Assembly (NCBI GenBank): GCA_034090015.1
Contig: JAXDTJ010000018.1
Location: forward strand, 41,740 to 105,739
Length of the DNA: 64,000 bases
From: Paludibacteraceae bacterium
GTDB lineage: Bacteria > Bacteroidota > Bacteroidia > Bacteroidales > Paludibacteraceae
Reading direction: 5' to 3'
Every line of letters starts with the position of its first letter. Position 1 is the stretch's first letter. Under the pieces are notes generated by a model. The model did no database searches and was not told where the DNA came from. It saw nothing but the letters and a program-made list of their open reading frames with translations. Positions 23,130-42,496 of this stretch are shown piece after piece. A program made the position numbers and the translations under genes.

Positions 23130-23161
23130 AACTGCGTGTAGGGAAGCCTCTTCGAGGCTGT

Positions 23162-23257: not shown

Positions 23258-23263
23258 TTTGAT

Positions 23264-26200
23264 ATGAAAAACCGTTTATTCTTTTTATGCGTTGCCATGC
23301 TGGTGGCATGCGGCGTAACGATGGCTGACAACACTTGGTTTGAGGAGGGTCGTAACTTCTCTGCCTATTCTTTGGGTCAAGGCAAAGTGCATGTGAAGGT
23401 GCTGGTCTTTGCGAGAGGAGGTACGAATAACCACTGGGCAACGACGGGAAACGGCGGAAGCTTCGTCTATGCCTATTCCTCCGGAAATACAGTTTATGCG
23501 TTGCAGTACGAAGGCGATAATAATTACAACTGTGAGAACGACTACAAAGGTTGGGTGAAGTTTCAAGTGAAGAGCGGTACGGTGATTATTACCAATTCCT
23601 ACGGAGGCAACAACAGCACCACATACACTCCGAGCAACGGTTGGGTAAATCTATACCTATCGCGTACAGGAGAGAGCAACACCCCTACTTATTTGGAGTT
23701 CGACTGGTATCCGCCCACAGTCTTGGATAACAGGTCCTTCGACTTGAAAGCGACCATCACCGATACACGAAAGTATGGGGATACATGGACGCACACGTGG
23801 TACTTAGGCTCTTTCTCCGGCCTCTCTTTACAAGCGCCTATGCTCTATCAACCCGTGTTCTATAGCGTTGGAGAAGATGGTCAGCCGGGGCACGGACAAG
23901 TGGCTATTCCGTATGTGGTGTACCAAGAGCCGAAGAGTTACACCACCTCCACCACCGGCAATACTACCTTCATCTGCAAAGAGCGGACAGGTCAACTGCT
24001 GGCAAAGACCACCGACACGGTGCAGTATGGTTTTTCTGCCAACTTCACTGTCGTGCGCGAAGACAAGACCACCACGGTAGTAACTTCCAGCAAGGTGGAC
24101 ATCCCTGCGTTCCACCGTATCTATGATTTTAAAGCAGAACATTATGTACCGGAAGGTATGGATAGTATGTGGTATATAAAAACCAAGACCACCCTCAGTT
24201 GGAAGGTGCGGACACCCTGGGCAACCGATATCATGCCTATGGATATGTTCCAGATTCAGCGCGCCTACCATCCCGACTTCTCCGATGCCGAGACCCTCGC
24301 ACTCATCCCTTACGAGACAGGCAAGGGCACCTACCAGTGGGTGGACGACACAGAAGGGGCGATGAAAAACCTGAGAACGGATACTATTGACATGAATATC
24401 TACTATCGTGTAAACCGCGTCTCTACCACCAACTGGGGCTATGAAGGGCACGAGTGGGTGCGTACTACCGCCATCCGGAAAAACACCAGCTTAACGCATT
24501 TTGACTCCGATTATAGTAACTACCGCAAAGCAGACGATTTTCAAGAAACAAGGCGCGTGTTGTTTACATTAGAAACATTGACTGATCTAAACATGTCATA
24601 CTGTTGGGATGAGAGAGCCTCCATACGCGTACGCCGACTGGCTATCTCTGCCGTGGATACTATCATCACGGAGAGAGTATTCCCCGGCTCTATGGTGCGG
24701 CCCTTGCCCCCAGACCCCAAACGAGGCAACCCTTATTTCAGTACCCTCTACCGGTTTGACTTCGAAGATGTAGCAGACATCCCTTGTTGCCACTATGAGT
24801 ATGAGGTATATATAGACGACAGCCAAAGTCTGCTGAAGTTAGATGACTTGTACCACCGCTATCAAGAACCGCTGAAGTTAACCTCCTTAGACCTTTACTA
24901 CACCGATGCGGCTTCTATTGCTACCTTCCGCGTGTCGGACGGAGTCTATCCCGACCGTATCTTCCTGCAATGGAACCCAACATCAGGCAGCGTAGACTCC
25001 TTCTATGTATATCGGAGCACAGACCAGAGGCAAGGAGGCGAGGAGATTGCCCGCATCGCAGGACAGCACTATTATATAGACACGGATGTCGTCCCGGGCA
25101 CGGTTTACTACTATACCCTAATGGCGTCTTATCTTTGCGGCGGTACGCATCAGACGCAGTTTACCGAGCAAAAGAGAGGCAGTCTGTCGCCCTACGGATG
25201 CATCCGCGGGCGTATCACATACCCCAATGGCACCGGCAACGTCGGCGTAACAGTACGGGCTGAGGGTATAAGTGGAGATGTTGCTTCTATCACCCCCAAC
25301 TACCTCTATGCCGACTCCACACGCGTAGTATATAATAGTACGCAAGACCCCGTTTCCCTGAGCGGCGATTTCTCTATCCAGATGATGGTCAAAGACTCCG
25401 ACCTCACTATCGTTAGCGGTACCGGACACCCATTGCTATATAGCACCGATAGTACTTTCCGCCTCGAACTATCCGGCGAAACTATCCGCTTCACCATGGG
25501 CAACCAGACCAGACTACTCAGCCTACGTAACGAACACAGCCAAAACAACGATAACAACATTTTCTCCCTCACCCTCACCTACTGTGCCCACACCCAAACG
25601 GTAACCCTCTACCGCGATGAGCAACAGACCGCTACCGCCACTATCCCCCTGCACAACATCCATAGCCGCTTGCGCTTCTGCTGCCCCTACTCGCTCGCCC
25701 CCGTCTCTTCCTACGGCGTGGGCATTGATGAAGTGCGTATCTTCCACCGCGTGCTCTCACAAGACAACGTCCGCACATACTCGCGACATGCCTTGGCGGG
25801 AGACGAAAACGGACTGATACTCTACTACAAGTTCGACATGCTATCTTTATCTGATATCGCTATCCCCAATATAGCAAAGATGCAAGCCACGGACGGCAAC
25901 GGAATGATGGCAGCGAACAACGCACTCATTTGGGACAAGGCAAAAAATGATGATGATTACCGATATATCCACCTCCCGGGAGACCTCATCACGCGCTTCG
26001 AGGCACTCACCGACGAGAGCGGCAACTATGTCTTAGCGGGCATACCCTTTGCCAACGGCATTACTTACAGCCTTACCCCCACAGCCCAACACGGCACCTT
26101 CCGCTATAACGGCACATCCTCTGCTTCAGCCACCATCACGATTGGCAACACGCGCCCGGAAGCAACCGCTGTGGACTTCATGAACACCGATGCCGTGCGC

Positions 26201-29200
26201 TTCAGCGGCAGGATACTCTACGAACGCTCCACCATACCGGTGAAGGGCGTGCATTTCTTGGTGAACGGCATACTCGCCACCGATGCCACAGGCAACCCCG
26301 TCGAGACCAACGAGAGCGGTAACTTCCAGTTTGAATTGCCCAAAGCACCGATACGGGTGCAGGCTGTGAAAGACGGACACTGCTTTGCCAACGATGGATA
26401 CCTGATTCTCAACGGAGACACCCTCTTCCAACCTACCGACAACATCGATGCCATTCGCTTCTACGACCGAACGAAGGTACGCCTCATCGGGCGTATTGCC
26501 GGCGGTAACGACCAAGGACTACTCCCCTTAGGCTTCGGACTCAGCCGTAACAACCTCGGCGACCATATCTGCATGGTGCTGGAGTTAGAGGGCGACAACG
26601 CCGCGCAGATAGTCTTCGACCCCTTGGACAAGACCCTCAACCGCCTTGACACCACTATCGTCCATGCCATAGACACCACCCAACATACCGACATTTCCTT
26701 GCAGAGCAAGCGGATAATGATTTACCCCGACCCGGCTTCCGGAGAGTTCTTTGCCGACCTCTTCCCCGTGAAGTACAAAGTAACCCAACTGACCGCACAA
26801 GGCTATAGCACGCTCACCAACGAGAAGACCGCCATGCAGGTCATAGACCTCACCAACAAACTCGACAGCCAATACACCTATTATACTGACACCATTCAAG
26901 GAGGTGCGGTCTCCAGGCCGCACCAAGAGAACTATGACGAAACCATGGTGCGGTTAGGAGACCGCACCTCCTTGGCCTTCCACGACACCTTCCGACATAT
27001 CTACCATAGCCCCATCACCGTAACGCCCGTACAGAGCCTTTACGGCATGGAGGTGGGCTATTTCGGCGTCGAGCGTATCGCTGTGCAACGATGGGACGGA
27101 GAGTCGGAATCCCAGTCGGTAGCACTTGCCAAAGAAGACGGCACCTATGAATACCTCTTCGGAAAACCCATCTTCACCGAAGGCAAATACACCTTCAATA
27201 TCTACGCGCACGAGGACTATTACTATAATGGCGACCGCAACCTCGGCAAGCACGACCGCGTGATGCTCCACGAAGGCGAGGTGAAAATCTATAACGGCAT
27301 GCACTCCAACACAGAAGTGCTGACCGGGACGCTCGATAAAGACGGTGTCTGCCGCAACATGGTCCTCCGCGCGGATTATCCCACCTACACGCGCGTGGAC
27401 GAAGACGCTGCGCGAAACATACAGGTTACTGTAACCTACGAGCGTGAATCCCATACTACCGAGCCTTTGCGGGTGCTGGTATTCGCCGACCGACGAGAGG
27501 GAACAGAGGCAATATCCTCCACCACGGCAGACATCACACTCTACGATATCCTGCGCGACCCGCCCGGCTCCGGCAGTTTCGCTACACTCAGCGCAGGAGC
27601 ATCATACTCCGCATCGAAAACATGGGCGTTATCCGTCAAAGCGGGTGTCACACTCGAGTTCGAAAAAGGAGTAAAATATGCCGGATTTGTGGGAGCGGTT
27701 ACTGCCGTCCCGGGACTGCTATCAGCGCAAAACTATAACATAAACACAACCACACCATTCAGCATTCCGCTGGTGTATAATTATTCCATCAACAAAGATT
27801 ATAGTTATTCCTATTCCACCACCGAGACCATACGAACGGGTAGTGATGCCTACCATGTAGGTGCAAAAGCGGACATATTCATGGGGGCAGTGGAGAATCT
27901 CTATATATCTACTTGCCACGGTATGGCTGTGCTGGACTCGCTGACCTATCTATCGATGGCTGCGCAGAAGGAGAACGGCACCATGCGGCATATCGCTACC
28001 GCACGAAATCTACAAGGTGAACTACGCCACCTCGTGGTAGCGCCTAAACTCACCTTAGACATGGTGCAGGATGCCACTTTCTGCTACACCCAAGAGCACA
28101 TCCTCACCACCGTGATTCCCAAACTGGTAGCCCAACGCAATGCCTTGGTGCTTTGCGTGGACTCAGCGGCGGCAAGAGCAAAAGCCAATCAAGAGAAAAA
28201 GCGTATCTACTACACTACGATGAGCCCTGATAGTGCCGACTTCGCAATAACACGCGGGAAAGGGTACGACTTTGTTGACCCCGTAAATAATACCGATAAT
28301 ACACCCGAGGCGGATAAAGTAGCCGGTATCAACCGTGCCATCCTCGCTTGGACCAACCTGATAAAACAAAACGAGAAGGAGAAGGTCAATGCACAATATA
28401 CCACCGACAAAAAAACATATTCCGTGGCAGGTGGCTCTACGCTTACCTATTCCGAAACGGTAACTTACGGCAGCAAATATAACGAAATACCCTTCAACTT
28501 GGGCGGTTCTGCCGGAGCAAGCAATCTGAGCAATCTATGGGGAAACGCCATCAACAAAACCATACAGACGCTTCTACAGGTAGGTGGAAAGGCTGATTCT
28601 ATCACCATTGAGAGCGAAGCGCCGGGCAGCAAGTTCTCCTTCAGTTTGAAACCCATTGCCAATATAAGCACCCAACCAACTTACGCCGCCTCCGAACAGA
28701 AGTCGCGCACCTATGGTTATACGCTATCCCCAGACCGGTTCGGATATATGGATGTGCAAGTAATGCGCATGAAAGACACGATAAGCGATTTCTACCAAAA
28801 CGCGGAGGATACCCTTGCGTTAACAGGAGAGAAAGCCAATGGTAAACTGCAAAGTTACAGCAGTTTCATCTTCCGCCAGTTGGCAGGTGCCAGCCGCTGC
28901 CCGTGGGAGGATGCCGACTCCACACTCTTCTACCAGCCCGGCACGCCGCTGAGCATTGCCACCGCGCGCTTGGAAAACCCGCAGATAACCATCGCCCAAC
29001 GCGAGATAAGTAATGTGCCTGCCGACCAACGCGCCATCTTCCAAATCGCCCTCAACAACGAGCAGACCTACTACACGGGCATAGGTGCAGCCACCCTGCC
29101 CTTTGAACTGTCGGTTATGCCGGGTAGCAACCCCAACGGACTCAAGATAACCATAGACGGCCAACCCCTCACCTCGGATCCTTTATCCATCACTCTCCCG

Positions 29201-32200
29201 CACGGCACTACGATCCACAAGACCATAGAGGTGGAGCGCGGACAGGGTTACGACTTCGAGGACATCACGCTCCTCCTGCGCTCTACCTGCGATATCATGG
29301 AGTATGCCCTCGCCGCCTTCTCCGTCCATTTCGTACCTGCCGCCACCCCTGTCTCCATGCCTACCCCGCATGACCAATGGGTGCTTAACACGCAGTCCGC
29401 ACGCGACTCCGCAGGCTACTACCTACCCGTCTCCATCGACGGCTTCGACATCCACTCCGACGGCTTCGACCATATCGAGTTGCAGTACAAGCCCCACACC
29501 GCCTCCGATGCTGATTGGGTGAACATCTGCTCCTACTACGTCTCCGACAGCCTCTACGAGCAGGCATCGGGCACCAAGCAGCGTATCGCGGGCAGCAAGA
29601 TAGACAACATCCGTTTCTACGGCGGGCGCGACCCCATGGAGCAGGAGTACGACCTCCGTGCTATGGCGTTCGCACGCTACGGCAACGGCTTCGTTACTCG
29701 CGCCTCGGAGGTGCTCCACGGCGTGAAAGACACACGCCGACCCGAACTCTTCGGCACCCCAACGCCTGCCGACGGCATACTTTCCGTAGGCGATGTGCTC
29801 TCGCTGCGTTTCAGCGAACCCATTGCAGGAAACCTATTGGACGAGGATGTTAATTTCGAGGTGATTGGTACGGATGATGTTCTCTCACTCACCACCTCCC
29901 TCCATTTCACAGGCGAATTCTCTTGCTACGCCCGCACAAAGGTTACCCGCAACATGAACGCCCGACCCTTCACCATTGAGGCAATGATTAAACCTACCGG
30001 AAATGCAGCCTTGCAAACCATCTTCGCGCTGGACAACGAGAAAGAGCCTCTGTGGTTCGCATGGGCGGGAGACCATCTCGAAGCACAGATAGGAAAAGTG
30101 CGACTGCAATCCGCCACCGTAGAGCCTATCCTCGACTTCACACGAGTAGCACTTACCTACAACCTGGAGGACTCTATTGCCCGATTCTTTGTTGGAACAC
30201 AAGAGATTAATTATGAATTAAGAATTAAGAATTATGAGCATTCCGAGCACTCCGATAACTCCGAACACTCCGATTACTCAGCAACCAACGCGAAGCCGTC
30301 GTACCATAGTGCTGCTCAACTGATTTGGGGTAACAATGCTACTTATGATGCTCCCTTCCAAGGGGATATGTTGGAAGCACGACTATGGACGAAAGCACTC
30401 ACGCAAGCCGAGTTGGCGCGGTATAAAGACTGCCATCTGACGGGCTACGAGCGCGAACTGGTGGCATATTACCCGATGAACGAAGGGAAAGGCACTACTT
30501 GCGAGGACAAAGCCAATGGTGCCACCCTCACCCTTAACGGCACCTCGTGGGTACTGCCCGAAGGTATGTCTATCCACTTGAACGGCGCAGAGCCTATCTG
30601 TCTCAACGGCGACCTGCTCAGCCGCTCCGACATCGAAGACCTGACCCTGCTCTTCTCCTTCAAGGCAGACGAAAACCTCGCTGATACATCTGAACTCCTG
30701 CATGCAGGCAAGCATACCATGCACCTTACCTCGGATGCCTTGCTATGGAGAACCGACAGCACCGAACGCCGTGCACCGGGGGCTTTTGCAGATGCTCAGT
30801 GGCACCAGTTGGTGGTGGCTATTGACCGCACGAGGAATATAGCCTCTCTGCTTGTGGATGGCAACACACTGCTTGCCACAGCGGCTGACGACATACCCGC
30901 CTTCGCAGACAGTGTCTGGACACTGGGGCAGTCTTTCCGAGGACATATCGATGCTTTCACGCTCTTCGAACAGGCATTGCCTACCTATGTGATAGAACGC
31001 TACAACAATCTCGCACCGCAAGGAGACGAGATGGGACTTATCGCATATATGCCTTTCGGGCAGTATATCCTCCAACCCAACGGACGCTACGAGTTAGTCT
31101 ATTCGCCGGAGAACGCCCGTATCTTCCGCGATGCCGACGGGAATACGGTAGAGAAGCACCAAAAGCTGGTGATGAACAACCTCACACGCTACACCGATAA
31201 AAAGGATTTTGCACCCTTGCGTAATGGGAATGCCCGAAAGAAACTTAACTTCTCGTGGGCAAGCAATGGCGATGAACTGATGATAAACATCAACATGCCC
31301 GACCATGAGATTAACCATCGCAACCTGCTCCTGACGGTGCAGCGCGTGGAGGACCAACATGGCAACGCCATGCTCAGCCCCCACACATGGGCGGCTTATG
31401 TGCACCGGCAGCAACTGCGTTGGGACAACCCGCAGATTAACTATGAGCAACAGGTTCCTGGTTCCGAGTCTCAGGTTTCAAGTGCGCAGCCTTACACCTT
31501 CACCGCCACCATCCGCAACCACGGTGGTACTACGCGGGAGTATCATCTTAACTCCCTTCCCTCGTGGCTCACGGCGCAGCCGGCTTCCGGATTCCTTGCG
31601 CCGCTGGAGACGCAGACCATCACCTTCACTGTGGACGAAGGGCTGAACATCGGCGAATATACCGAGTATATCTACCTGACCGACGACCAACAGTTGGACG
31701 ACCGCTTGTTGCTCAACCTGCACATAAAAGCCACCTGCCCTTGGACACTCGACCAGACGGAACTCAACCGCTCCATGTCGCTAATCGGGCAGGTACAAAT
31801 ACCCGTCGAGAACGGTACAATACAAATAGATACCGACTCACAGGATATGGTGGCAGCCTTCGTTGGCGAGCAGTGCGTGGCTTTGGCTCCCGTGCGGCTG
31901 AATCAGCAGACAAAGCCGGTTACCTACATGACCATCTACGGTAACGATAGCCATGCAGGCAAGGCGCTACGCTTCCAACTCTGGCATGCCAAGAACGGCA
32001 AGGTCTATATCCTTGCCCCGAGCGAAGACATCCCCTTCCGCGCCAACGAATGTTATGGCTGCGAGGGTACACCCATCACGCTCACCGTGACCGACCGACA
32101 GGTGCAACTGCTCACGCTGCAGCCCGGGTGGAATTGGTTCAGCCTGTATCTCAAGCCCACCTATCGCTCGGACCTCACGCGCCTCTTCTGTTCATCCGAC

Positions 32201-33334
32201 GCATGGACGAACGGCGACATCATCAAGAACCCCGAAGAGCAATACTTCGCAGAATATCAGATGAATACCTCGCCAATTCGATGGTATGGTACCCTATCCA
32301 CGATACGGTACCGCAGCATTTTCTTGGCGCATGTGTCGAATCCTATTCTACTGCAGATTGAGGGCGACCGTTTGGACGATGAGGGACGCACGCTCACGCT
32401 TGAGCAGGGGTGGAACGTAATGCCCTATCTCCTGACAGAGAAGCAGTCGCTCACCGACGCCTTGGCTGACTACTACGACGATGCCTCCGAGGGCGACCTC
32501 ATCAAGAGTCGCGATGCCTTTGCTGTCTTCTCCCACGCAGGCAAGTGGGAAGGCAACCTCACATATATGCAACCCGGGCTGGGGTACATGCTCCGCCGCC
32601 TCGCACCCGACCCCTGTACCTTCACTTACTATACTTATAACCCGTTGGAACAAGGGACAGGAAGCCAGGAGTCAAGAATTAATTATGAATTAAGAATTAA
32701 GAAAAAATCGTTCGAGCGTAGCGGAGATAAGAATTATGAGGGCAACGCAAACAACGTAAACAACGCAAACAACGCAAACAACGCGCAGCCTTACACCTCT
32801 GCCACTACCATGTCGCTCATTGCCACGGTGGAATTGGAGCCGGGAGTCAAGAACCAAGAACAAAGACTAAATGGTTCCAACGATGAGATTGCAGAAACGA
32901 AGGTAATAAGTCTTTCATCCTGTGTCCTTTGTCCTTCATCCAATGAAAGCCTTACCCTCGCTGCTTATATCGGCAACAGGCTTGTGGGGGTCGGTTATCC
33001 GCAGCAGGTAGGGACAACGACAGAAGACGCTATCTTCTTCCTATCTATCGCCGATGGCGCAGAGGTGGCAAGTGGGCAGTGGCCAGTGGCCAGTGGTCAG
33101 GAGGTTAGTGGTCAGATACGCTTTGTCCTTCTCTGCAACGGCGAGCCGGTGGCACACGGCACCCAGACCTTGCCTTATCAACAAGATACGGTGGTGGGTA
33201 CCCTACGCAAACCCTATCGTATCACATTCCATACCATAGACGATATGCAAGACAAGCCGTATAAGATATTGGAAAATCAACAAATATACATTATTCGCAA
33301 TGAAAACAAATATAATATCCTTGGCGTTCATTAG
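23264..33334 (+). CDS. giant (3356 aa) secreted surface protein with FN3-like, carboxypeptidase-regulatory-like and three LamG (laminin-G_3) domains
   Basis: Signal peptide MKNRLFFLCVAMLVACGVTMA. FN3-like FLQWNPTSGSVDSFYVYRS. LamG endings IDEVRIFHRVLSQDNV, LEARLWTKALTQAEL and IDAFTLFEQALP. The frame is uninterrupted for 10 kb. Confidence 0.85.
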   Translation: MKNRLFFLCVAMLVACGVTMADNTWFEEGRNFSAYSLGQGKVHVKVLVFARGGTNNHWATTGNGGSFVYAYSSGNTVYALQYEGDNNYNCENDYKGWVKFQVKSGTVIITNSYGGNNSTTYTPSNGWVNLYLSRTGESNTPTYLEFDWYPPTVLDNRSFDLKATITDTRKYGDTWTHTWYLGSFSGLSLQAPMLYQPVFYSVGEDGQPGHGQVAIPYVVYQEPKSYTTSTTGNTTFICKERTGQLLAKTTDTVQYGFSANFTVVREDKTTTVVTSSKVDIPAFHRIYDFKAEHYVPEGMDSMWYIKTKTTLSWKVRTPWATDIMPMDMFQIQRAYHPDFSDAETLALIPYETGKGTYQWVDDTEGAMKNLRTDTIDMNIYYRVNRVSTTNWGYEGHEWVRTTAIRKNTSLTHFDSDYSNYRKADDFQETRRVLFTLETLTDLNMSYCWDERASIRVRRLAISAVDTIITERVFPGSMVRPLPPDPKRGNPYFSTLYRFDFEDVADIPCCHYEYEVYIDDSQSLLKLDDLYHRYQEPLKLTSLDLYYTDAASIATFRVSDGVYPDRIFLQWNPTSGSVDSFYVYRSTDQRQGGEEIARIAGQHYYIDTDVVPGTVYYYTLMASYLCGGTHQTQFTEQKRGSLSPYGCIRGRITYPNGTGNVGVTVRAEGISGDVASITPNYLYADSTRVVYNSTQDPVSLSGDFSIQMMVKDSDLTIVSGTGHPLLYSTDSTFRLELSGETIRFTMGNQTRLLSLRNEHSQNNDNNIFSLTLTYCAHTQTVTLYRDEQQTATATIPLHNIHSRLRFCCPYSLAPVSSYGVGIDEVRIFHRVLSQDNVRTYSRHALAGDENGLILYYKFDMLSLSDIAIPNIAKMQATDGNGMMAANNALIWDKAKNDDDYRYIHLPGDLITRFEALTDESGNYVLAGIPFANGITYSLTPTAQHGTFRYNGTSSASATITIGNTRPEATAVDFMNTDAVRFSGRILYERSTIPVKGVHFLVNGILATDATGNPVETNESGNFQFELPKAPIRVQAVKDGHCFANDGYLILNGDTLFQPTDNIDAIRFYDRTKVRLIGRIAGGNDQGLLPLGFGLSRNNLGDHICMVLELEGDNAAQIVFDPLDKTLNRLDTTIVHAIDTTQHTDISLQSKRIMIYPDPASGEFFADLFPVKYKVTQLTAQGYSTLTNEKTAMQVIDLTNKLDSQYTYYTDTIQGGAVSRPHQENYDETMVRLGDRTSLAFHDTFRHIYHSPITVTPVQSLYGMEVGYFGVERIAVQRWDGESESQSVALAKEDGTYEYLFGKPIFTEGKYTFNIYAHEDYYYNGDRNLGKHDRVMLHEGEVKIYNGMHSNTEVLTGTLDKDGVCRNMVLRADYPTYTRVDEDAARNIQVTVTYERESHTTEPLRVLVFADRREGTEAISSTTADITLYDILRDPPGSGSFATLSAGASYSASKTWALSVKAGVTLEFEKGVKYAGFVGAVTAVPGLLSAQNYNINTTTPFSIPLVYNYSINKDYSYSYSTTETIRTGSDAYHVGAKADIFMGAVENLYISTCHGMAVLDSLTYLSMAAQKENGTMRHIATARNLQGELRHLVVAPKLTLDMVQDATFCYTQEHILTTVIPKLVAQRNALVLCVDSAAARAKANQEKKRIYYTTMSPDSADFAITRGKGYDFVDPVNNTDNTPEADKVAGINRAILAWTNLIKQNEKEKVNAQYTTDKKTYSVAGGSTLTYSETVTYGSKYNEIPFNLGGSAGASNLSNLWGNAINKTIQTLLQVGGKADSITIESEAPGSKFSFSLKPIANISTQPTYAASEQKSRTYGYTLSPDRFGYMDVQVMRMKDTISDFYQNAEDTLALTGEKANGKLQSYSSFIFRQLAGASRCPWEDADSTLFYQPGTPLSIATARLENPQITIAQREISNVPADQRAIFQIALNNEQTYYTGIGAATLPFELSVMPGSNPNGLKITIDGQPLTSDPLSITLPHGTTIHKTIEVERGQGYDFEDITLLLRSTCDIMEYALAAFSVHFVPAATPVSMPTPHDQWVLNTQSARDSAGYYLPVSIDGFDIHSDGFDHIELQYKPHTASDADWVNICSYYVSDSLYEQASGTKQRIAGSKIDNIRFYGGRDPMEQEYDLRAMAFARYGNGFVTRASEVLHGVKDTRRPELFGTPTPADGILSVGDVLSLRFSEPIAGNLLDEDVNFEVIGTDDVLSLTTSLHFTGEFSCYARTKVTRNMNARPFTIEAMIKPTGNAALQTIFALDNEKEPLWFAWAGDHLEAQIGKVRLQSATVEPILDFTRVALTYNLEDSIARFFVGTQEINYELRIKNYEHSEHSDNSEHSDYSATNAKPSYHSAAQLIWGNNATYDAPFQGDMLEARLWTKALTQAELARYKDCHLTGYERELVAYYPMNEGKGTTCEDKANGATLTLNGTSWVLPEGMSIHLNGAEPICLNGDLLSRSDIEDLTLLFSFKADENLADTSELLHAGKHTMHLTSDALLWRTDSTERRAPGAFADAQWHQLVVAIDRTRNIASLLVDGNTLLATAADDIPAFADSVWTLGQSFRGHIDAFTLFEQALPTYVIERYNNLAPQGDEMGLIAYMPFGQYILQPNGRYELVYSPENARIFRDADGNTVEKHQKLVMNNLTRYTDKKDFAPLRNGNARKKLNFSWASNGDELMININMPDHEINHRNLLLTVQRVEDQHGNAMLSPHTWAAYVHRQQLRWDNPQINYEQQVPGSESQVSSAQPYTFTATIRNHGGTTREYHLNSLPSWLTAQPASGFLAPLETQTITFTVDEGLNIGEYTEYIYLTDDQQLDDRLLLNLHIKATCPWTLDQTELNRSMSLIGQVQIPVENGTIQIDTDSQDMVAAFVGEQCVALAPVRLNQQTKPVTYMTIYGNDSHAGKALRFQLWHAKNGKVYILAPSEDIPFRANECYGCEGTPITLTVTDRQVQLLTLQPGWNWFSLYLKPTYRSDLTRLFCSSDAWTNGDIIKNPEEQYFAEYQMNTSPIRWYGTLSTIRYRSIFLAHVSNPILLQIEGDRLDDEGRTLTLEQGWNVMPYLLTEKQSLTDALADYYDDASEGDLIKSRDAFAVFSHAGKWEGNLTYMQPGLGYMLRRLAPDPCTFTYYTYNPLEQGTGSQESRINYELRIKKKSFERSGDKNYEGNANNVNNANNANNAQPYTSATTMSLIATVELEPGVKNQEQRLNGSNDEIAETKVISLSSCVLCPSSNESLTLAAYIGNRLVGVGYPQQVGTTTEDAIFFLSIADGAEVASGQWPVASGQEVSGQIRFVLLCNGEPVAHGTQTLPYQQDTVVGTLRKPYRITFHTIDDMQDKPYKILENQQIYIIRNENKYNILGVH
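26897..26974. repeat. 78-nt palindromic element in-frame in giant ORF
   Basis: Arms GGAGGTGCGGTCTCCAGGCCGCACC / GGTGCGGTTAGGAGACCGCACCTCC. The left arm is identical to 62935-62959. Confidence 0.85.
30206..30280. repeat. TTAAGAATTATGA words + CACTCCGA words in-frame in giant ORF (LamG domain 2)
   Basis: ATTAATTATGAATTAAGAATTAAGAATTATGAG, then GAGCACTCCGATAACTCCGAACACTCCGATTACTC. Confidence 0.85.
32666..33115. repeat. cluster of five different word-repeat families in-frame in the giant ORF 3' region
   Basis: Five families are present: TTAAGAATT words (32675-32705); CAACGCAAA x~5 (32744-32786); AAGAACC words (32846-32865); the AAGGTAATAAGTCTTTCATCC... copy of the 58204 repeat (32897-32945); and CAGTGGC words (33070-33115). 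Confidence 0.85.
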
Positions 33335-33785
33335 CCTTCTTCTTCTGAGTTCGTGTAAGCGCGAGACGATTTTTCCTACCCACCCGCAGCCGGACTGGCA
33401 GGTGGTGAGCGATGTAGATATGCGTTATAGCATGACATTAGTAGGTGCTCTACCTGAGCACCTACTCGCCGATGCGGACACCGCAGACATCATCGCTGCC
33501 TTCGTAGTAGCCAACTCCGAGAACTCCGACACCCTCTGCTGTGGGCTCACCCATCTCACACCTATCCTCGGCAGCAACGAAAACAACAACGCCACTTACC
33601 TCCGCGCCTTCCTCTATATTACCCTGCCAACGGGGGTGAAGGAAGACTGCCGCATTTTCTTTCGCTACTACGCCACCCGCACACGCTACCTCTACCAAGC
33701 GGAAAGCACCATTCCCTTCCAATCGGATGCCATCATAGGCAACATCTCCGACCCCTACGAGATAGCCTTCGGGGAGCCGAGATGA
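33300..33785 (+). CDS. lipoprotein paralogous to the C-terminal module of the giant protein
   Basis: MKTNIISLAFISLLLLSSC lipobox. The ATG lies 35 nt inside the giant ORF. The sequence pattern SMTLVG...DIIAAFV...IPF...DPYEIAF matches two modules of the giant protein. Confidence 0.65.
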   Translation: MKTNIISLAFISLLLLSSCKRETIFPTHPQPDWQVVSDVDMRYSMTLVGALPEHLLADADTADIIAAFVVANSENSDTLCCGLTHLTPILGSNENNNATYLRAFLYITLPTGVKEDCRIFFRYYATRTRYLYQAESTIPFQSDAIIGNISDPYEIAFGEPR

Positions 33786-33943: not shown

Positions 33944-33994
33944 CAGCGAAGCAATCTATCCCGACAAGTCGGGACCAACAGCGAAGCGATCTAT
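33943..33994. repeat. TCCCGAC-AA-GTCGGGA hairpin flanked by direct ACAGCGAAGC(A/G)ATCTAT repeats
   Basis: Same hairpin core as 20001-20029 and 52378-52408. Confidence 0.75.
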
Positions 33995-34053
33995 TTTTAG
34001 GTAGAAAAATACGCGAAAATGTCGTTTTGTTTGCATATATGGGAAAAAAGTGG

Positions 34054-34071: not shown

Positions 34072-34336
34072 AAATTTACGAATTACGATTTACGAATTAC
34101 GATTTTCCGTTAAAGACCATTAAAAGACCATTAAAAGTTTAAGTTATACTCCGTTAATTGCCGTTAATTATTCGTTAATTTTTTTGCCTCCATTAAAGAC
34201 CATTAAAGGTTCATTAAAGGCAAAGTTTTAATGGTTCTTTAATGGGCTTTAACGGAGAAAACAAAAAGAAATTAATGAATAATTAACGGTCATTAACGGA
34301 GAACGAAAATAATTAACGGGCATTAACGGAAAACGA
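34072..34336. repeat. word-repeat leader of polyamine operon (CGTAAAT, CCATTAAAG, CCGTTAAT words) with nested inverted repeats
   Basis: 34150-34182 is a near-perfect complement of 34270-34301. The inner pair is 34190-34220 / 34226-34247. Confidence 0.8.
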
Positions 34337-34340: not shown

Positions 34341-35228
34341 ATGGAGAATTTTGCCGGATTAAGCGGGCGTTGGGCGGACGAAAAGACCGCGCGGATAGTG
34401 GTGTTGCCTGTGCCTTATGACAAGACGAGTTCGTGGGTACACGGTGCGGAGAAGGGACCGGAAGCCTTCTTGGAGGCGAGCGTGCAGTTGGAGTGGCTGG
34501 ACACGGAGACGCGGACGGAGGTCTATCGTCAGGGTATCCATACCGCCGCGCCCGTAACGGAAGACCGCACGCCGGCGTTGCTATGCGAGGCGGTGGAAGA
34601 ACGCATGGGGGCACTATGGGACGCGGGGAAGTTCCCCTGCATGATAGGCGGCAACCACACGGTGTCTATCGGTGCTTGCCGCGCGGCGGCGAAGCGTTTT
34701 GAGGGGCTGACGGTGCTGCAATTAGACGCACACAGCGACCTGCGACCCGAATACGAGGGGTCGGAGTTGAACCACGCCTGCATCATGAAAGAGGCGCAGA
34801 AAGTGGCGAAGACGGTGCAGGTGGGGATCCGCAGCCAGTGCGTAGAAGAGGCGGAGAACGCTGCGAAGAGCACGATTATATGGGCGCGCGAGATATGGGA
34901 AGACGAGACCTTCGGGCAGCGACCTGCCTCGGCGAGCGAGAGTTGGGCGTGGGAGAAGCGGGTATATGATGCGCTGACGGAGAATGTGTATCTGACCATC
35001 GACCTCGATGTGTTCGACCCTGCTTATCTGCCCTCTACGGGTACGCCGGAGCCCGGGGGCATGGGCTACTATCAGGTGCTGCACCTGCTGCGACCTGTGT
35101 TCGAGCGATACAACGTGGTGGGGTTTGATATCGTGGAACTCTGTCCGAGCCCGACCCGCCAAGCGCATGCGTCGCAGTACCTCGCCGCACGGCTGGCATA
35201 TCAGTTGATGACATACAAATTTATTTGA
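34341..35228 (+). CDS. speB: agmatinase (arginase/ureohydrolase family)
   Basis: GGNHTVSIG, LDAHSDL and DLDVFDP Mn-binding motifs, in a polyamine gene context. Confidence 0.85.
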   Translation: MENFAGLSGRWADEKTARIVVLPVPYDKTSSWVHGAEKGPEAFLEASVQLEWLDTETRTEVYRQGIHTAAPVTEDRTPALLCEAVEERMGALWDAGKFPCMIGGNHTVSIGACRAAAKRFEGLTVLQLDAHSDLRPEYEGSELNHACIMKEAQKVAKTVQVGIRSQCVEEAENAAKSTIIWAREIWEDETFGQRPASASESWAWEKRVYDALTENVYLTIDLDVFDPAYLPSTGTPEPGGMGYYQVLHLLRPVFERYNVVGFDIVELCPSPTRQAHASQYLAARLAYQLMTYKFI

Positions 35229-35305
35229 CAATTGGACAATTTACAATTTGACAATTATGCGCCGCATGGCTAATTGTAAAATTGTCAATTGTAAAATTGT
35301 AAAAT
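35224..35305. repeat. GACAATTT-word hairpin between speB and nspC
   Basis: Loop TGCGCCGCATGGC. The speB TGA lies inside the first word. Confidence 0.85.
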
Positions 35306-35311
35306 GATACC

Positions 35312-36553
35312 ATGTTTCCCAATCCTTGCTACATAGTGGAAGAGCGGCTTCTGCACCGTAACCTCGCGCTGATAAAGCGCGTGGCGGATGAGACGGGCGT
35401 GGAGATAATCTTGGCATTCAAGGCGTTTGCGCTTTGGAAGACTTTCCCTATCTTCCGTGAGTATATTCAGCATACCACGGCTTCGAGTGTCTATGAGGCG
35501 CGGCTGGCATACGAGCAATTCGGTGCCCCCGCGCACACCTATAGCCCCGCCTACACGGAGGAGAACTTCCCCGAGTTTCTGCGGTATTCGAGCCATATCA
35601 CGTTCAATAGTTTGAGTCAGTGGGAGAGATTTGGAAGGATCCAAGAACCAAGAACCGAGAACCAAGAGGGGAGAGTCTCTTTCGGCATACGTATTAACCC
35701 TGAGTATTCGGAGATAGAGACCTTGCTCTACAATCCTACGGCGCCCGGGTCGCGGTTTGGCGTGCTGGCGGAGCAGTTGGAGACCTATTGCGAGGCGCGT
35801 GGCGGGAGGCTGCCCGAAGGATTGGAGGGCTTTCATTGCCACTGCCATTGCGAGGATGATTCCTACACTTTCGAGCGGACGCTGCAACACATAGAGGCGA
35901 AGTTCGGCAAGTGGTTCCCGCAGTTGCAATGGCTCAACCTCGGCGGCGGGCACCTGATGACCCGCAAGGACTACGATGTGGAGCATCTGATAGGGTTGCT
36001 CAAAGGACTGCGCAGCCGCTATCCGCACCTGAAGATACTGCTTGAGCCCGGCAGCGCGTTTGCTTGGCAGACGGGTGTGCTGACGAGCAAGGTGGTGGAT
36101 ATCGTGGAGAACCACGGTATACGGACGGCAATACTGAACGTGTCGTTTGCCTGCCACATGCCCGACACGCTGGAGATGCCCTATCAACCGGCAGTGAGGG
36201 GAGCAAGACCCACCCCTCCCCTCCCTGAAGCCACCCCACTACGCGTTGCTTGTGGGGACCCCGGAAAGGGAGGGAGTGAAGACCCCCGCGAGGTAGGGAG
36301 TGAAGAGGGGTATCGGTATCGCCTTGGGGGCAATAGTTGTCTGTCGGGGGACTGGATAGGCGATTGGGTGTTTGACCACGAGTTGCAGATTGGGGAGGAG
36401 ATAATCTTTGAGGATATGATTCACTACACCACGGTGAAGACGCACATGTTCAACGGCATTGCTCATCCCTCGCTGGGAATACGCCGCGAAGACGGCACGG
36501 AGGAAGTGCTCCGCACATTTGATTACGAAGATTACTTGAATAGGATGGACTGA
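35312..36553 (+). CDS. nspC: carboxynorspermidine/carboxyspermidine decarboxylase
   Basis: N-terminus PCYIVEERLLHRNLALIK...ILAFKAF (PLP Lys), then LGG.SCLSGD and HYTTVKTHMFNG blocks. It carries two repeat-derived in-frame inserts. Confidence 0.85.
   Translation: MFPNPCYIVEERLLHRNLALIKRVADETGVEIILAFKAFALWKTFPIFREYIQHTTASSVYEARLAYEQFGAPAHTYSPAYTEENFPEFLRYSSHITFNSLSQWERFGRIQEPRTENQEGRVSFGIRINPEYSEIETLLYNPTAPGSRFGVLAEQLETYCEARGGRLPEGLEGFHCHCHCEDDSYTFERTLQHIEAKFGKWFPQLQWLNLGGGHLMTRKDYDVEHLIGLLKGLRSRYPHLKILLEPGSAFAWQTGVLTSKVVDIVENHGIRTAILNVSFACHMPDTLEMPYQPAVRGARPTPPLPEATPLRVACGDPGKGGSEDPREVGSEEGYRYRLGGNSCLSGDWIGDWVFDHELQIGEEIIFEDMIHYTTVKTHMFNGIAHPSLGIRREDGTEEVLRTFDYEDYLNRMD
35637..35671. repeat. 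AAGAACC words in-frame in nspC
   Basis: GGATCCAAGAACCAAGAACCGAGAACCAAGAGGGG. The same word occurs at 32846. Confidence 0.75.
36205..36312. repeat. GC-rich repeat block in-frame in nspC
   Basis: Contains CACCCCACTACGCGTTGCTTGTGGGGACCCCGG, which matches 38593-38630 (CACCCCACTGCGCGTTGCTTGCGGGGACCCCGC). Confidence 0.8.
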
Positions 36554-36560
36554 TATTAAA

Positions 36561-36645
36561 CTTGTAATTTGTAATTTTTAATTTGTAATTTTTAATTGCC
36601 ATTCGGCGAAAATAATTACAAATTAAAAATTAAACATTAAAAATT
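36561..36645. repeat. TGTAATTT-word hairpin between nspC and speA
   Basis: Left arm CTTGTAATTTGTAATTTTTAATTTGTAATTTTTAATT, loop GCCATTCGGCGAAA, complementary right arm. Confidence 0.85.
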
Positions 36646-36647
36646 GC

Positions 36648-38546
36648 ATGAAACGCTGGCATATAAAAGATAGTGCAGAACTGTACAACCTGCAGGGTTG
36701 GGGCGTGAACTATTTCGATATCAACGAGAAAGGGCACATGGTGGTTACCCCCAAGAAAGATGACAATCAGATAGATATCCGCGAACTGATTGACGAGTTG
36801 GCATTGCGCGACATTCAGCCGCCCGTGCTGCTGCGTTTCTCGGATATCATCGAGAACCGTATCGAGCGCATGAACGAATGCTACGAGCATGCCGCGAAAG
36901 AGTACGGCTACAAGGGCGAATGCTTCTTGGTGTATCCTATCAAGGTCAACCAGATGCAGCCCGTGGTGCACGAGATAGTGAGCCACGGCAAGAAGTTCAA
37001 TATCGGGCTGGAGGCAGGCAGTAAGCCGGAGTTGCACGCCGTGATAGCCGTCAATCAGGAGCCCGACTCCATCATCATCTGCAACGGCTACAAAGACGAG
37101 GCGTATATTGAGTTGGCTTTGCTCGCGCAGAAGATGGGCAAGCATATCTATATCGTTGCTGAGAAACTGAACGAGTTGGAACTCATTGCAAAAGTGTCGG
37201 AGCGGCTGGGTGTGCGCCCGAACATCGGCATCCGCATCAAGTTAGCGTCGGTAGGCTCGGGCAAGTGGGAAGAGTCGGGCGGCGATGCGTCGAAGTTCGG
37301 ACTGACCAGCAGCGAGTTGCTGGAAGCCCTCGAGACGCTGGACGCGCACCGGATGCACGACTGTCTGAAACTGATACACTTCCATATCGGCAGCCAAATC
37401 ACCAACATCCGCAACGTGAAGACGGCTATCCGCGAGGCGGCGCAGTACTACGTGCAACTGCACAAATTAGGTTTCCCCGTGGAGTTTGTGGATGCCGGCG
37501 GCGGGCTGGGCGTGGACTACGACGGCACGCGGTCGAGCAACTCAGAGTCGTCGGTCAACTACTCTATCCAAGAGTACGTCAACGATATCATGTACGGGCT
37601 GATAGAGGCGGCGGACAAGAACAACCTGCCGCACCCGAATATCATCACCGAGTCGGGGCGCTCGCTCAGTGCCCACCACACGGTGCTCATCATGGAGGTG
37701 CTGGAGACGGCGCACCTACCCGAGATGCCCGAAGAATGGGAGGTAGGCGAAGGCGACCACCAGTTGGTGAAAGACCTGTACGAGATTTGGGACAACCTCA
37801 CGCAACGGTCTGCGTTGGAGAGTTGGCACGATGCGGAGCAGATACGCGACGAGGTGGTGGAACTGTTCAGCCACGGGCTCATTGACCTGCGCACCCGCGC
37901 ACAGATAGAGAAACTCTATTGGTCGGTAACGCGCGAGATAGCCTCGCTCGCCAACCAGATGCGGCGCGTGCCCGAGGAGTTGGAGAAAGTGAATAAACTA
38001 TTGGCAGACAAGTACTTCTGCAATTTCTCGCTCTTCCAATCCATGCCCGACACATGGGCTATCGACCAAGTGTTCCCCATCATGCCTATCCAACGGCTCG
38101 ATGAGATGCCCGACCGCCATGCGACGATACAAGACATCACCTGCGACTCCGATGGCAAGGTGCAGAAATATGTCTCGGAGGGGACGCTGACGAAATCGCT
38201 GCCCGTGCATTCGTTGCGCAAAGGCGAGCCCTACTACATTGGTGTCTTCCTCGTGGGGGCGTACCAGGAAATCTTGGGAACTATCCACAACCTCTTCGGC
38301 GATGTTACCGCCGTGCATATCGCGATGAAAGACGAGGGCTACTCCATCGAGCAGACCATCGATGGCGAGAGCGTGCAGGATGTGCTGCGCTGGACGGAGT
38401 ACGATGTGAAGAAGATGGTGCGCACGCTGGAGACTTGGGTAACGAAGTCGGTGAAAGCAGGGAAAATCACCCTCGCCGAGGGCAAAGAGTTCCTCTCCAA
38501 CTACCGCTCCGGATTGTACGGATATACCTATTTGGAAAGGGAATAA
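36648..38546 (+). CDS. speA: biosynthetic arginine decarboxylase
   Basis: 632 aa. WGVNYFDINEKGH start, YPIKVNQ PLP-lysine block, HFHIGSQ, and C-terminal GYTYLE. Confidence 0.9.
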   Translation: MKRWHIKDSAELYNLQGWGVNYFDINEKGHMVVTPKKDDNQIDIRELIDELALRDIQPPVLLRFSDIIENRIERMNECYEHAAKEYGYKGECFLVYPIKVNQMQPVVHEIVSHGKKFNIGLEAGSKPELHAVIAVNQEPDSIIICNGYKDEAYIELALLAQKMGKHIYIVAEKLNELELIAKVSERLGVRPNIGIRIKLASVGSGKWEESGGDASKFGLTSSELLEALETLDAHRMHDCLKLIHFHIGSQITNIRNVKTAIREAAQYYVQLHKLGFPVEFVDAGGGLGVDYDGTRSSNSESSVNYSIQEYVNDIMYGLIEAADKNNLPHPNIITESGRSLSAHHTVLIMEVLETAHLPEMPEEWEVGEGDHQLVKDLYEIWDNLTQRSALESWHDAEQIRDEVVELFSHGLIDLRTRAQIEKLYWSVTREIASLANQMRRVPEELEKVNKLLADKYFCNFSLFQSMPDTWAIDQVFPIMPIQRLDEMPDRHATIQDITCDSDGKVQKYVSEGTLTKSLPVHSLRKGEPYYIGVFLVGAYQEILGTIHNLFGDVTAVHIAMKDEGYSIEQTIDGESVQDVLRWTEYDVKKMVRTLETWVTKSVKAGKITLAEGKEFLSNYRSGLYGYTYLERE

Positions 38547-39966: not shown

Positions 39967-40063
39967 ACAATTTGAAAGTTAACAATTTGAAAATTTGAAA
40001 ATGACGATGCAGAATTAATCATTTTCAAATTTTCAAATTTACAAATTTACAAATTTTCAAATT
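39967..40063. repeat. TTTGAAAA-word hairpin between dehydrogenase and GT2 genes
   Basis: TTTGAAAATTTGAAAATGA - loop - TCATTTTCAAATTTTCAAA... Confidence 0.85.
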
Positions 40064-41028: not shown

Positions 41029-41128
41029 CATTTGACAATTTGACAATTTACTATTTTACAATTAACCATGCGGCGCATAGTTGTCAAATTGTAAATTGTC
41101 AAATAGTCAAATAGTAAATTGTCAAATA
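41029..41128. repeat. GACAATTT-word hairpin between GT2 and hypothetical gene (inverted copy of the 35224 family)
   Basis: The loop CCATGCGGCGCATAG is the reverse complement of the 35258 loop. Confidence 0.85.
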
Positions 41129-42334
41129 ATGAAGCTTTCCGAGCAAGTAAATACCGTAGAGAGGGCATTGGGTGAACGCATGATTACCCATGCGATGGTG
41201 ATTGTGCGCCAATGGGCAAATGAGTTGGGCGATGAACTGTGTACAGGGCGGATTGACCAACTGGAGCAGAACTATCGCTATGTCTTCGATTATTACCTCT
41301 CTACCGAAGACCCCGATAGAGACGCTTTGCTCGACAAGATGACCGGCGAGGCTTATCGCATCACCGATGAGGTCTATGCCGCCCTGCGCGTGAAGCGCGG
41401 CATGTCGCCCGATATGCACGGCTTCAACCCCCGCAACCCCCAGAGCGTGATGCACTATTTCAGTTCCTGCGTGCAACTGAAGCCGGAGGACCTGCAATGG
41501 TTGCAGCAAGCAGCGCAGTATGAGCACTCTGCCGCCATCGCTATTGCCGCCTCTGCGGCGTTGGCACAGAACCTGCGCGAGTGCTTCAACGAAGCGGCGA
41601 TGCTGGCACTCATCGATGTGGCAAACGCCGACAACGGGCTGGTGGCTGACCAAGCGCTCGCTAACCTCATCCTGCTGCTTGCACACTACGATGTGCGTAT
41701 TGACTTTTTCCCCAATATACAAGACGCTTTTATGGAGCCGTTGGGCGATGGCACACGCGCTTTTGAAACGATGTGCGCCATCATACGCTCCACCAAGATG
41801 AATCTCCGCGATGTGCTGGCGTCAGGACAACTCTCTTTCGACGACCTGCCCGACGCACTCAAAGACTTGCTTGGCAGCACCGGCGACACTCCCGACATAG
41901 AGTCCATCGAGTCGTGGATGCCTGCATCGGAGAACGAGTATATGGCAGGGATTACCTCCATCCTGCCCGACACATGGGTGTATGCCGTCATCGTAGGGGA
42001 CAACGCGGAGCGCGAAGAGAAAGTAGCACTCACCTACTTGACAGTCGGAAAGATGGATATGCTGTGGGACAACCTCGAACCGGCGGAAGGCTGGCTCACT
42101 CAGCGTCTCTGCTCCGAGCAAGCCGCGCCTATCGACTATATCAACTACGGGCATTGCTGCTTCGTACGAGGCGACCGCATGATGGCGTATGAGAACTACC
42201 GCGAGGCGCGCAGCCGCTGCAAATCCGCCAAAGAGTTCTTCGCCCTCTTCCGCCCCGACAGACATTTCCTATTAGAGAAAGGCATACCCGTAGAGCAAAT
42301 CTACCTGATGGAAGACCAATTGCTGCGGTCGTAA
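41129..42334 (+). CDS. hypothetical protein (401 aa)
   Basis: Long ORF with host-like composition. The ATG at 41129 is chosen because the track start at 41081 lies inside a word repeat. I recognise no motif. Confidence 0.55.
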   Translation: MKLSEQVNTVERALGERMITHAMVIVRQWANELGDELCTGRIDQLEQNYRYVFDYYLSTEDPDRDALLDKMTGEAYRITDEVYAALRVKRGMSPDMHGFNPRNPQSVMHYFSSCVQLKPEDLQWLQQAAQYEHSAAIAIAASAALAQNLRECFNEAAMLALIDVANADNGLVADQALANLILLLAHYDVRIDFFPNIQDAFMEPLGDGTRAFETMCAIIRSTKMNLRDVLASGQLSFDDLPDALKDLLGSTGDTPDIESIESWMPASENEYMAGITSILPDTWVYAVIVGDNAEREEKVALTYLTVGKMDMLWDNLEPAEGWLTQRLCSEQAAPIDYINYGHCCFVRGDRMMAYENYREARSRCKSAKEFFALFRPDRHFLLEKGIPVEQIYLMEDQLLRS

Positions 42335-42348
42335 AAAGACAAATCAAT

Positions 42349-42462: not shown

Positions 42463-42496
42463 CATTATAATTTAGTAGCACTTCGCTATTTCCGTA

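Follow-up and report, generated by a model that had tools for sequence, protein, structure and literature searches.

A 450-nt zone close to the 3′ end of a giant open reading frame (ORF) of an uncultured gut Paludibacteraceae bacterium, at positions 32666-33115 of the 64,000-nt stretch of DNA analysed here (contig JAXDTJ010000018.1 of assembly GCA_034090015.1; hereafter the window), appears from sequence comparison to be a strain-hypervariable stack of translated repeat-element inserts and one example of a genome-wide process. The inserts number three, designated A, B and C, and not five as a preliminary description of this DNA had it. An inter-domain linker and two loops of the encoded protein each hold an in-frame copy of a 20-110-nt repeat element made of arrays of 7-9-nt words, some of them palindromic, and families of such elements fill nearly every spacer of this Paludibacteraceae genome. 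We regard it as probable that dispersed tiny repeat elements, similar in behaviour to the Rickettsia palindromic elements (RPEs), have been copied into the DNA of this Paludibacteraceae genome and remodelled there, and that the copies preserving the reading frame have been retained in tolerant loops.

The host gene holds the zone in its last ~220 codons. Its product, which is probably surface-exposed, has an N-terminus resembling a signal peptide or lipobox (LVAC) and contains Laminin_G_3 domains, and its nearest relatives are found in gut metagenomes and in one Paludibacteraceae metagenome-assembled genome (MAG). As orthologs we compared five metagenome loci, L001-L005, the flanks of which are 95-98% identical to the window (78% in L003); the dN/dS of the giant ORF against these orthologs is 0.18-0.41, which indicates a functional gene. 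The features of the gene and of the zone are as follows.

Giant ORF, 23264-33334, + strand: host gene of the inserts, 3,356 aa.
Module 1, 31733-32098, + strand: paralogous module without interruption, compared with module 2 by hhalign.
Site A, 32640-32799, + strand: variable inter-domain linker with a composite insert.
Family 1, 32681-32703, + strand: AATTAAG, 3.3 units (TRF), read INYELRIK.
Family 2, 32743-32784, + strand: CAACGCAAA, 4.7 units (TRF), read (NAN)n.
Module 2, 32786-33244, + strand: last β-sandwich module, carrying inserts B and C.
Site B, 32839-32945, + strand: one ~100-nt element, in the predicted loop that joins the first and second strands of module 2.
Family 3, 32848-32866, + strand: CAAGAAC, 2.7 units (TRF), left arm of the site B element.
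Family 4, 32918-32936, + strand: TCCTTTG, 2.7 units (TRF), within the right arm of the site B element.
Site C, 33060-33115, + strand: (GTGGSCA)n array read SGQWPVASGQEVSGQ, in the predicted loop between two strands of module 2.
Family 5, 33065-33100, + strand: GTGGCCA, 5.1 units (TRF), at site C.
Downstream lipoprotein, 33300-33785, + strand: third module copy, its start overlapping the end of the giant ORF.

Tandem Repeats Finder (TRF) detected five arrays in the zone, all in frame 1 of the giant ORF, compared with a mean of 0.04 and a maximum of 1 in 200 dinucleotide shuffles, and five of the nine TRF arrays of the 10-kb ORF are concentrated in these 450 nt. The five in-frame word families that had been reported here are thus real, and they read, in order, INYELRIKKK, NANNVNNANNANNA, VKNQEQ, ETKVISLSSCVLCPSSN and SGQWPVASGQEVSGQ; the peptides predicted from the inserts include INYELR, SGDKNYEGNANNVNNANNANNAQPYTSATTMSLIATVELEPGVK and VISLSSCVLCPSSNESLTLAAYIGNR. 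Family 2 keeps the reading frame because its period is 9 nt. Insert A and a further insert upstream, at site E (see below), are open in one of the six frames, namely the one in use. The idea that openness in all six frames is a design feature was discarded, as the in-ORF copies are open in one to three of the six frames, no better than shuffles.

The families did not turn out to be unrelated. Families 1 and 2 travel as one composite segment (ATTAATTATGAATTAAG...AATTATGAGGGCAACGCAAAC...GCGCAGCCTTACACC), the window copy of which has an additional internal piece of 30 nt; the observed order at site A is GSQES, an AATTAAG/AATTATG array, the 30-nt inner piece, NYEG and a CAACGCAAA array ending in AQPYT. 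Families 3 and 4 belong to the two arms of one ~100-nt element at site B, the left arm being the CAAGAAC array and the right arm GTCTTTCATCCTGTGTCCTTTGTCCTTCATCC (32899-32943). Family 5 is a heptamer array that is partly self-complementary (DNA fold z -4.2), and a related array is found at the ligA stop (1617-1635). The five families make up three composite inserts, A, B and C, rather than five independent units.

At site B, 32844-32943 is 76% reverse-complementary to 58201-58300 in the dut/TPR spacer over the full length, including the non-repetitive centre, and the match proposed between family 4 and the reverse complement of this spacer is genuine.

Spacer homolog of the site B element, 58198-58300, - strand: intergenic, in the dut/TPR spacer; hairpin still formed (z -2.0).

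The corresponding site B copy of L001 matches window 58204-58282 with a blastn E-value of 1.4e-14. In the window the left arm of site B now reads CAAGAAC and the hairpin potential is gone (fold z +1.0), whereas in the L003 copy the left arm is still AAGGATG and pairs with the right one; the arrays of site A have a fold z of 0.0. ORF 58098-58310(-) does read the spacer element as ETKVISLLSLILYPSSN, as had been noted, but this ORF is itself non-coding, likewise ORF 57662-58180(-), which was rejected as a gene because it is an antisense artefact of the real dUTPase gene dut at 57761-58195(+).

The module of ~110 aa exists in three copies, as the preliminary description had proposed. Since pairwise BLASTP comparisons among them gave hardly any information (short stretches only, with E 3.2, 2e-6 and 1e-3), profile-profile comparison was required, and it aligned module 1 with module 2 at a probability of 97.5% (E 7.7e-12, hhalign) and the lipoprotein with module 1 at 95.3% (E 2e-8). 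The gaps of the profile alignment against the two paralogous modules coincide exactly with inserts B and C. We furthermore inspected an AlphaFold (AF2) model of the last 557 residues of the giant ORF, with a mean predicted local distance difference test score (pLDDT) of 77.8. Its pLDDT falls below 50 at the inserts only (model residues 328-374, 397-411, remaining low until ~430, and 469-481), apart from short stretches of the C-terminal tail (532-541 and 555-557); at site B the low values span residues 393-430. Because the low-pLDDT segments of the inserts sit between confidently predicted β-strands, insert A is placed by the model in an inter-domain linker before the first strand of module 2, and inserts B and C in strand-connecting loops. 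Alignment of the module copies, which had been suggested as a way of placing the inserts in loops, thus succeeded at the level of profiles for B and C. The statement that all five families interrupt the module holds for B and C inside the loops of module 2 and not for families 1 and 2, which lie in the linker upstream. The loops of about 35 distant homologs (22-43% identity) are short at each of the three insert positions, and together with the two paralogous modules without inserts these homologs point to insertion, not deletion, as the polarity of the change. A fold assignment was not possible, as a Foldseek search of the C-terminal model against the PDB returned generic Ig-like multi-domain matches with E >0.01. 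The lipoprotein gene starts 35 nt ahead of the stop of the giant ORF in a different frame (window 33300-33334), and the presence of the same ~110-aa module at the end of the giant ORF and in the lipoprotein suggests a duplicated, split C-terminal unit.

The zone had been suspected to be a hotspot that is hypervariable between strains, for which length polymorphism in sister strains was the proposed check, and the five orthologous loci bear this out. Over the whole gene, every indel of ≥6 nt between the window and the five orthologs maps to an element site, and sites A, B and C, as well as three further sites upstream, D, E and G, have two to five alleles each.

Site D, 31455-31500, + strand: the window reads INYEQQVPGSESQVSSAQPYT; L003 and L004 carry an AATTAAG + CAACGCAAA composite.
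Site E, 30201-30282, + strand: another AATTAAG array within the ORF, with a GAGCACTCC nonamer array (INYELRIKNYEHSEHSDNSEHSDYS) after it.
Site G, 26897-26974, + strand: 78-nt perfect-stem hairpin element, in-frame (GGAVSRPHQENYDETMVRLGDRTS), z -9.4.

Sites A to C hold different alleles across the orthologs, with inserts that are shorter, longer, nested or missing. At site A, L001 has exactly one 9-nt nonamer unit fewer than the window, L002, L003 and L004 carry a different block of ~110 nt that contains an arm of another element, and L005 has a short unrelated linker, the distant homologs also being short here. Compared with the window, site B is longer by 18 nt in L001 and by 54 nt in L003, the latter corresponding to a nested 57-nt GC hairpin, and shorter by 78 nt in L002 and L004, where a minimal hairpin remains, and by 99 nt in L005. 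Site C is 18 nt shorter in both L004 and L005 and differs in sequence there. Site D lies ~1.2 kb upstream of site A, and its composite in L004 is identical in 48/48 positions to window 32728-32775. Site E is 42 nt shorter in L002 and L005; site G is occupied by a different N-rich array in L001 and L002 and by no element in L005; and the 78-nt hairpin element is inserted at 29995 in L003 only. The lipoprotein ortholog of L003 also has in-frame inserts, of +27 and +36 nt.

About 20 of these length alleles are multiples of 3. The one exception is site D of L004, which has one AATTAAG unit fewer than L003, leading to a frameshift and to the end of the ORF at a stop directly after INYELRIMRATQTT; the truncation is located at L004 199-260 (window ~31455-31500), and the following 1.6 kb are intact and 95% identical. 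It could be a recent inactivation, a phase variant or a consensus error. The unit number of tandem arrays within the coding sequence (CDS) differs between strains by -9 nt (one nonamer) and -7 nt (one heptamer), and the observed steps of -9, +18 and -7 nt all correspond to whole units. With a dS of only 0.06 between them, the window and L001 already have different alleles at three element sites; given also the ratio of ~20:1 in favour of in-frame alleles and the dN/dS, insert turnover is rapid in comparison with point substitution, and selection acts on the reading frame. Scaffold gaps of 100 N are present in L001 (2193-2292, 4767-4866 and 6410-6509), L002 (3646-3745 and 5734-5833) and L005 (2796-2895 and 4297-4396), and three of these seven gaps coincide with the element sites E, G and D.

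In-frame copies were also observed in housekeeping genes, of which nspC is located in the window. Compared with the closest solved structure (PDB 36gy), NspC has in-frame extras of 4 aa, 7 aa and ~30 aa.

CCAAGAA array in nspC, 35641-35667, + strand: in-frame, +4 aa compared with the closest solved structure.
GC-rich insert in nspC, 36205-36310, + strand: in-frame, ~30 aa (PTPPLPEATPLRVACGDPGKGGSEDPREVGS).

The AAGAACC words of the zone do recur in nspC, as had been claimed (AAGAACCAAGAAC at 35643). Close relatives of NspC (77-92% identity) are 385-454 aa long and have different inserts at the same two loops, among them the peptide MVRPGDRTS, which is encoded by the 78-nt hairpin element, and a LRVACGDPGKGGS segment is situated in loop 1 of the NspC relative P0056 and in loop 2 of NspC in the window. 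A scan of metagenomes for the hairpin core yielded 14 contigs, 13 of them from one sample (SAMEA3663036). On these the hairpin element is in-frame in MurI (glutamate racemase; +49 aa compared with PDB 1zuw), in a XerD-like recombinase (about +30 aa), in a HlyD-like adaptor, in an LptD-like protein and in a HAD hydrolase, and further hairpin copies are found in spacers, beside other element families. With the giant ORF, the lipoprotein of L003 and NspC, stop-free in-frame copies are thus present in a range of unrelated genes, and the phenomenon is not special to the giant ORF gene but genome-wide.

Within the window, 37 of the 70 TRF arrays fall in the non-coding 10%. Arrays of 7-16-nt words occur throughout, with many hairpin pairs adjoining start or stop codons. 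AATTAAG arrays have 10 matches, at six loci in the 64 kb, compared with 0 expected; the intergenic relatives of family 1 are at 11584-11673, 56336-56363 and 63614-63634. The hairpin element of the site G type is present at three sites.

AATTAAG/CTTAATT hairpin, 11584-11673, strand unassigned: intergenic, relative of family 1, z -8.2.
Single arm of the site G hairpin element, 62932-62961, + strand: intergenic, 25/25 exact.

In the explanation we favour, element DNA would first be copied to new sites, as suggested by the recurrence of the same segment at different sites (the composite of sites A and D, the 78-nt hairpin and the LRVACGDPGKGGS segment) and of different elements at one site. The copies would then be remodelled locally: replication slippage, for which the step sizes speak, would add or remove whole units, hairpins would mediate internal deletions, and elements would insert within other elements. 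Copies that shift the frame, add a stop or disturb the fold would be eliminated by purifying selection on the host protein; such a filter is indicated by the preponderance of in-frame alleles and by the fact that inserts A and E are open only in the used frame. The survivors would accumulate where extra disordered peptide is tolerated and be translated as low-complexity loop expansions, and inserts would stack in few positions because selection removes the other copies, so that the stacking would result from a tolerant site and not from a dedicated function.

Several points weigh against this explanation. No mobilising enzyme was found, and there is no transposase among the window genes. At a further site, F, which provides the one clean pair of a filled and an empty allele, there is no target-site duplication, and ~14 nt were replaced instead of a simple insertion; at sites A and B no consistent element ends were detected. 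Within the window, no intergenic array copy of the CAACGCAAA nonamers of family 2 and no clear intergenic array copies of family 5 were found, and part of the material may therefore have arisen in place. The spread of AATTAWG arrays over many phyla means that the common word alone does not prove common descent, and the 13 SAMEA3663036 contigs are tied to the lineage of the window through shared element families only. The translation of the inserts is inferred, as is the route of copying, for which ectopic gene conversion, template switching or an enzyme acting in trans are candidates. Finally, the neutrality of the inserts is an assumption, and variable loops on a surface protein could be useful.

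A bolder version, which we put forward tentatively, would see here an actively propagating community of ultra-small elements (20-110 nt, at least 10 families) that spreads by an undescribed mechanism, e.g., insertion or templated repair aimed at hairpins or existing arrays, and keeps writing new peptide into the loops of surface and housekeeping proteins. It would be a denser, faster-evolving and independent analogue of the RPEs.

The usefulness of variable loops is central to a different explanation, an adaptive contingency locus in which slippage would vary exposed loops (antigenic or phage-receptor) and 7-nt changes would phase-switch the C-terminal part. The host is indeed a giant secreted or lipoprotein-like protein, unit-number polymorphism is present, the loss of one heptamer truncates the ORF of L004 while the downstream coding sequence is otherwise intact, and surface proteins are known to be rich in microdiversity (PMC2884548). 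We nevertheless consider this explanation unlikely, as the same families and multi-allele loops are found in the cytoplasmic NspC, MurI and XerD-like recombinase, where a benefit at the surface is impossible; this identical behaviour in cytoplasmic enzymes argues for variability as a by-product. Moreover, the arrays are short (3-5 units), a single one of ~21 length alleles is out of frame, and most allele differences are replacements by other elements instead of changes in unit count.

A purely local origin, with arrays arising in place by slippage and resembling the spacers through a common mutational bias, would account for the independent AATTAWG arrays in many phyla and for nonamer arrays without spacer counterparts in the window, and heptamer simple-sequence repeats are given as the commonest prokaryotic class, born by slippage (Mrazek 2007, as summarised in PMC4679880). 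It does not account for the non-repetitive sequence that site B shares with the spacer over ~100 nt, the 78-nt hairpin with its unique stem at several unrelated sites, the 48/48 identical composite at another site or the different elements at the same site in strains 95-98% identical. These comparisons largely refute it, and we give it very little chance.

Intragenic invertons, with the inverted arms of sites B and G as recombinase targets and a segment that flips and thereby recodes or truncates the protein, are harder still to credit. Inversions within genes are on record for Bacteroidales (bioRxiv 10.1101/2023.03.11.532203), inverted repeats do lie within the CDS here, and the reversed 78-nt hairpin would place a stop in frame after an inversion; but in all four full in-ORF copies (window, L003, L126 and L134) the spacer has the same orientation relative to the ORF, the arms of site B in the window are decayed, and no invertase gene is located nearby in the window. 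An assembly artefact, in which a short-read assembler misjoined spacer repeats into the ORF, might be suspected from the N-gaps of L001, L002 and L005 at sites E, G and D, where assemblers struggle, but it is excluded for practical purposes by independent assemblies from different samples that reproduce A, B and C almost base for base (L001 97%), by the in-frame and stop-free state of the inserts and by an identical NspC (100%) on a 151-kb contig of a Paludibacteraceae MAG at NCBI. A diversity-generating retroelement was rejected as well, since the variation consists of indels and replacements, not of adenine-specific substitutions, and there is no reverse transcriptase nearby.

The elements of the favoured explanation work most like RPEs, which are short, partly palindromic families with copies in spacers as well as in-frame copies in genes unrelated to one another (Ogata et al. 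2000, Science 290:347, as summarised in PMC10969869). The likeness would be one of behaviour: repeat families both between genes and in-frame in unrelated genes including housekeeping enzymes, with the extra peptide read through, and insertion at positions compatible with the protein fold, here according to the AF2 model and the profile gaps. We do not claim membership of an RPE family, and no sequence relationship is expected. The elements described here are smaller (20-110 nt compared with ~100-150 nt), and many consist of tandem 7-9-nt words instead of one conserved palindrome. Palindromic structure is found in the 78-nt element of site G (z -9.4) and in the copies that L003 and the spacer have of the site B element, in contrast to site B of the window (+1.0) and site A (0.0). 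Furthermore, several families are stacked and nested in one loop, allele turnover is seen among strains of 95-98% identity, and the host is a free-living gut member of the Bacteroidales, whereas the RPE host is an obligate intracellular alphaproteobacterium.

The long simple-sequence and heptamer repeats of prokaryotes, which are abundant in spacers and often adjoin start codons (Mrazek et al. 2007; TAACTGA repeats, summarised in PMC4679880), and likewise the cyanobacterial STRR heptamers, share with our arrays the abundance in spacers, the adjacency to start codons, the changes in unit number by slippage and a sporadic taxonomic spread that includes Bacteroidota and cyanobacteria. The known arrays are described as essentially intergenic in that summary (PMC4679880), while those reported here are in-frame in CDS and linked to non-repetitive flanks, recurring as composite segments at different sites. 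Intragenic microdiversity, i.e., variable segments of 20-500 bp, often in-frame, several per gene and enriched in surface proteins, was described as a pattern without an assigned source (PMC2884548); the segments of the giant ORF can be traced to dispersed repeat families.

Repetitive extragenic palindromic sequences (REPs) are extragenic, have a GTAG or CGTC tag and depend on the REP-associated transposase RAYT (PMC3116915, PMC3733652). Like REPs and their doublets, the REPINs, our elements are very small dispersed hairpins that form inverted doublets (here the 78-nt hairpin) and nest, but many of their copies are intragenic, inside CDS. Inspection of the hairpin arms revealed a 7-bp stem-loop and no GTAG or CGTC head. 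Elhai and colleagues reportedly described, in 2008, small dispersed repeats of Nostoc that we liken to these very small hairpins with nesting. Within the Bacteroidales, BrickBuilt of Porphyromonas gingivalis is said to be a larger MITE (a miniature transposable element with inverted repeats) containing a ~23-bp minisatellite; we set it beside the elements here by description only, as a Bacteroidales repeat element with an internal tandem array, and we know of no report of BrickBuilt as translated in-frame loop inserts. The site F pair and the inconsistent ends at sites A and B speak against calling the present elements MITEs. In the literature searched we found no description of such elements in Bacteroidetes/Bacteroidales or Paludibacteraceae, which is not proof of novelty.

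Further observations concern the spacers and the surroundings of the giant ORF. Nearly every spacer contains arrays of 7-16-nt words that stop no more than a few bases from the following start codon and are often inverted pairs, folding into AT-rich hairpins that enclose a short GC loop (e.g., 7797-7836, 12534-12559, 23161-23259, 34074-34336, 35223-35305, 36562-36645, 39969-40063, 41030-41128 and 63646-63733). By analogy, this arrangement suggests a role as terminator, in the 5′-UTR or in translation, as was proposed for the TAACTGA repeats of Beggiatoaceae. A search of Rfam gave no family at gathering thresholds across the window, and sub-threshold matches to plant miRNA precursors at 34149-34301 were dismissed because they reflect the long hairpin only. 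A scan of genome contigs found exact AATTAWG x3 arrays in more than 119 loci, with several +/- hairpin pairs, in Bacteroidales, Prevotellaceae, Chitinophagales, cyanobacteria, Lentisphaeria, Ignavibacteria, Treponema and Chloroflexia; this spread over many phyla led us to abandon AATTAWG as a lineage marker.

Other families were noticed as well. A GC-rich family with ACTGGGGACGCGGGCG forms 47-nt inverted arms at 17654-17804 (91% complementary), with a 96% complementary copy at 63390-63417 and a 14-nt tandem CACTGGGGACGCCT at 21294-21320, and also adjoins the hairpin element in L136. A family of 16-nt words (CAGCGAAGCGGTCAGA and variants) is present in at least five spacers in both orientations (17787-17874, 19621-19690, 21945-22023, 33944-33995 and 57672-57730). 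Its copy at 21945-22023 lies inside the called 5′ end of an acyltransferase ORF, the true start of which is probably downstream, and the array at 57672-57730 is intergenic given the position of dut. The GC hairpin nested in the site B element of L003 belongs to a family of the form CTCCCCCGCCCCGC...GGGGAGGGGG(T/C)(A/T)GGGGGCGGGG, and a related hairpin, CTCAACTCCCCCTCACCCTCGGGGGAGGGGGCAGGG, is in-frame in the lipoprotein of L003 (family positions L003 3105-3180 and 3877-3912; also L128, L136 and L137); several SAMEA3663036 contigs have members of this family next to the 78-nt hairpin element.

Among the neighbouring genes, nspC is part of a polyamine operon (34341-38546; agmatinase, NspC and arginine decarboxylase), the junctions of which hold AT-rich word-array hairpins (35223-35305 and 36562-36645). 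A low-GC block at 42000-54900 (41-46% compared with 51-57% elsewhere), nearly without word arrays, encodes three large BspA-type leucine-rich-repeat proteins (42729-46379, 46379-52351 and 52464-54872) and is probably a horizontally acquired island of surface proteins.

To our knowledge, the in-frame colonisation of protein-coding genes by repeats has been regarded as an oddity of Rickettsia. If it holds true in gut Bacteroidales, the process would be more general, with many tiny families, cytoplasmic as well as surface proteins affected, and turnover among strains that are a few percent apart. In practical terms, the inserts break short-read assemblies, in which scaffold gaps fall on them, split gene calls and inflate the apparent divergence of proteins in metagenome catalogues. 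The comparison of strains would allow the mechanism of insertion and the tolerance of protein loops to be studied, and, should an actively propagating community of elements be at work, it would offer a natural setting in which to follow how new protein segments come into being.

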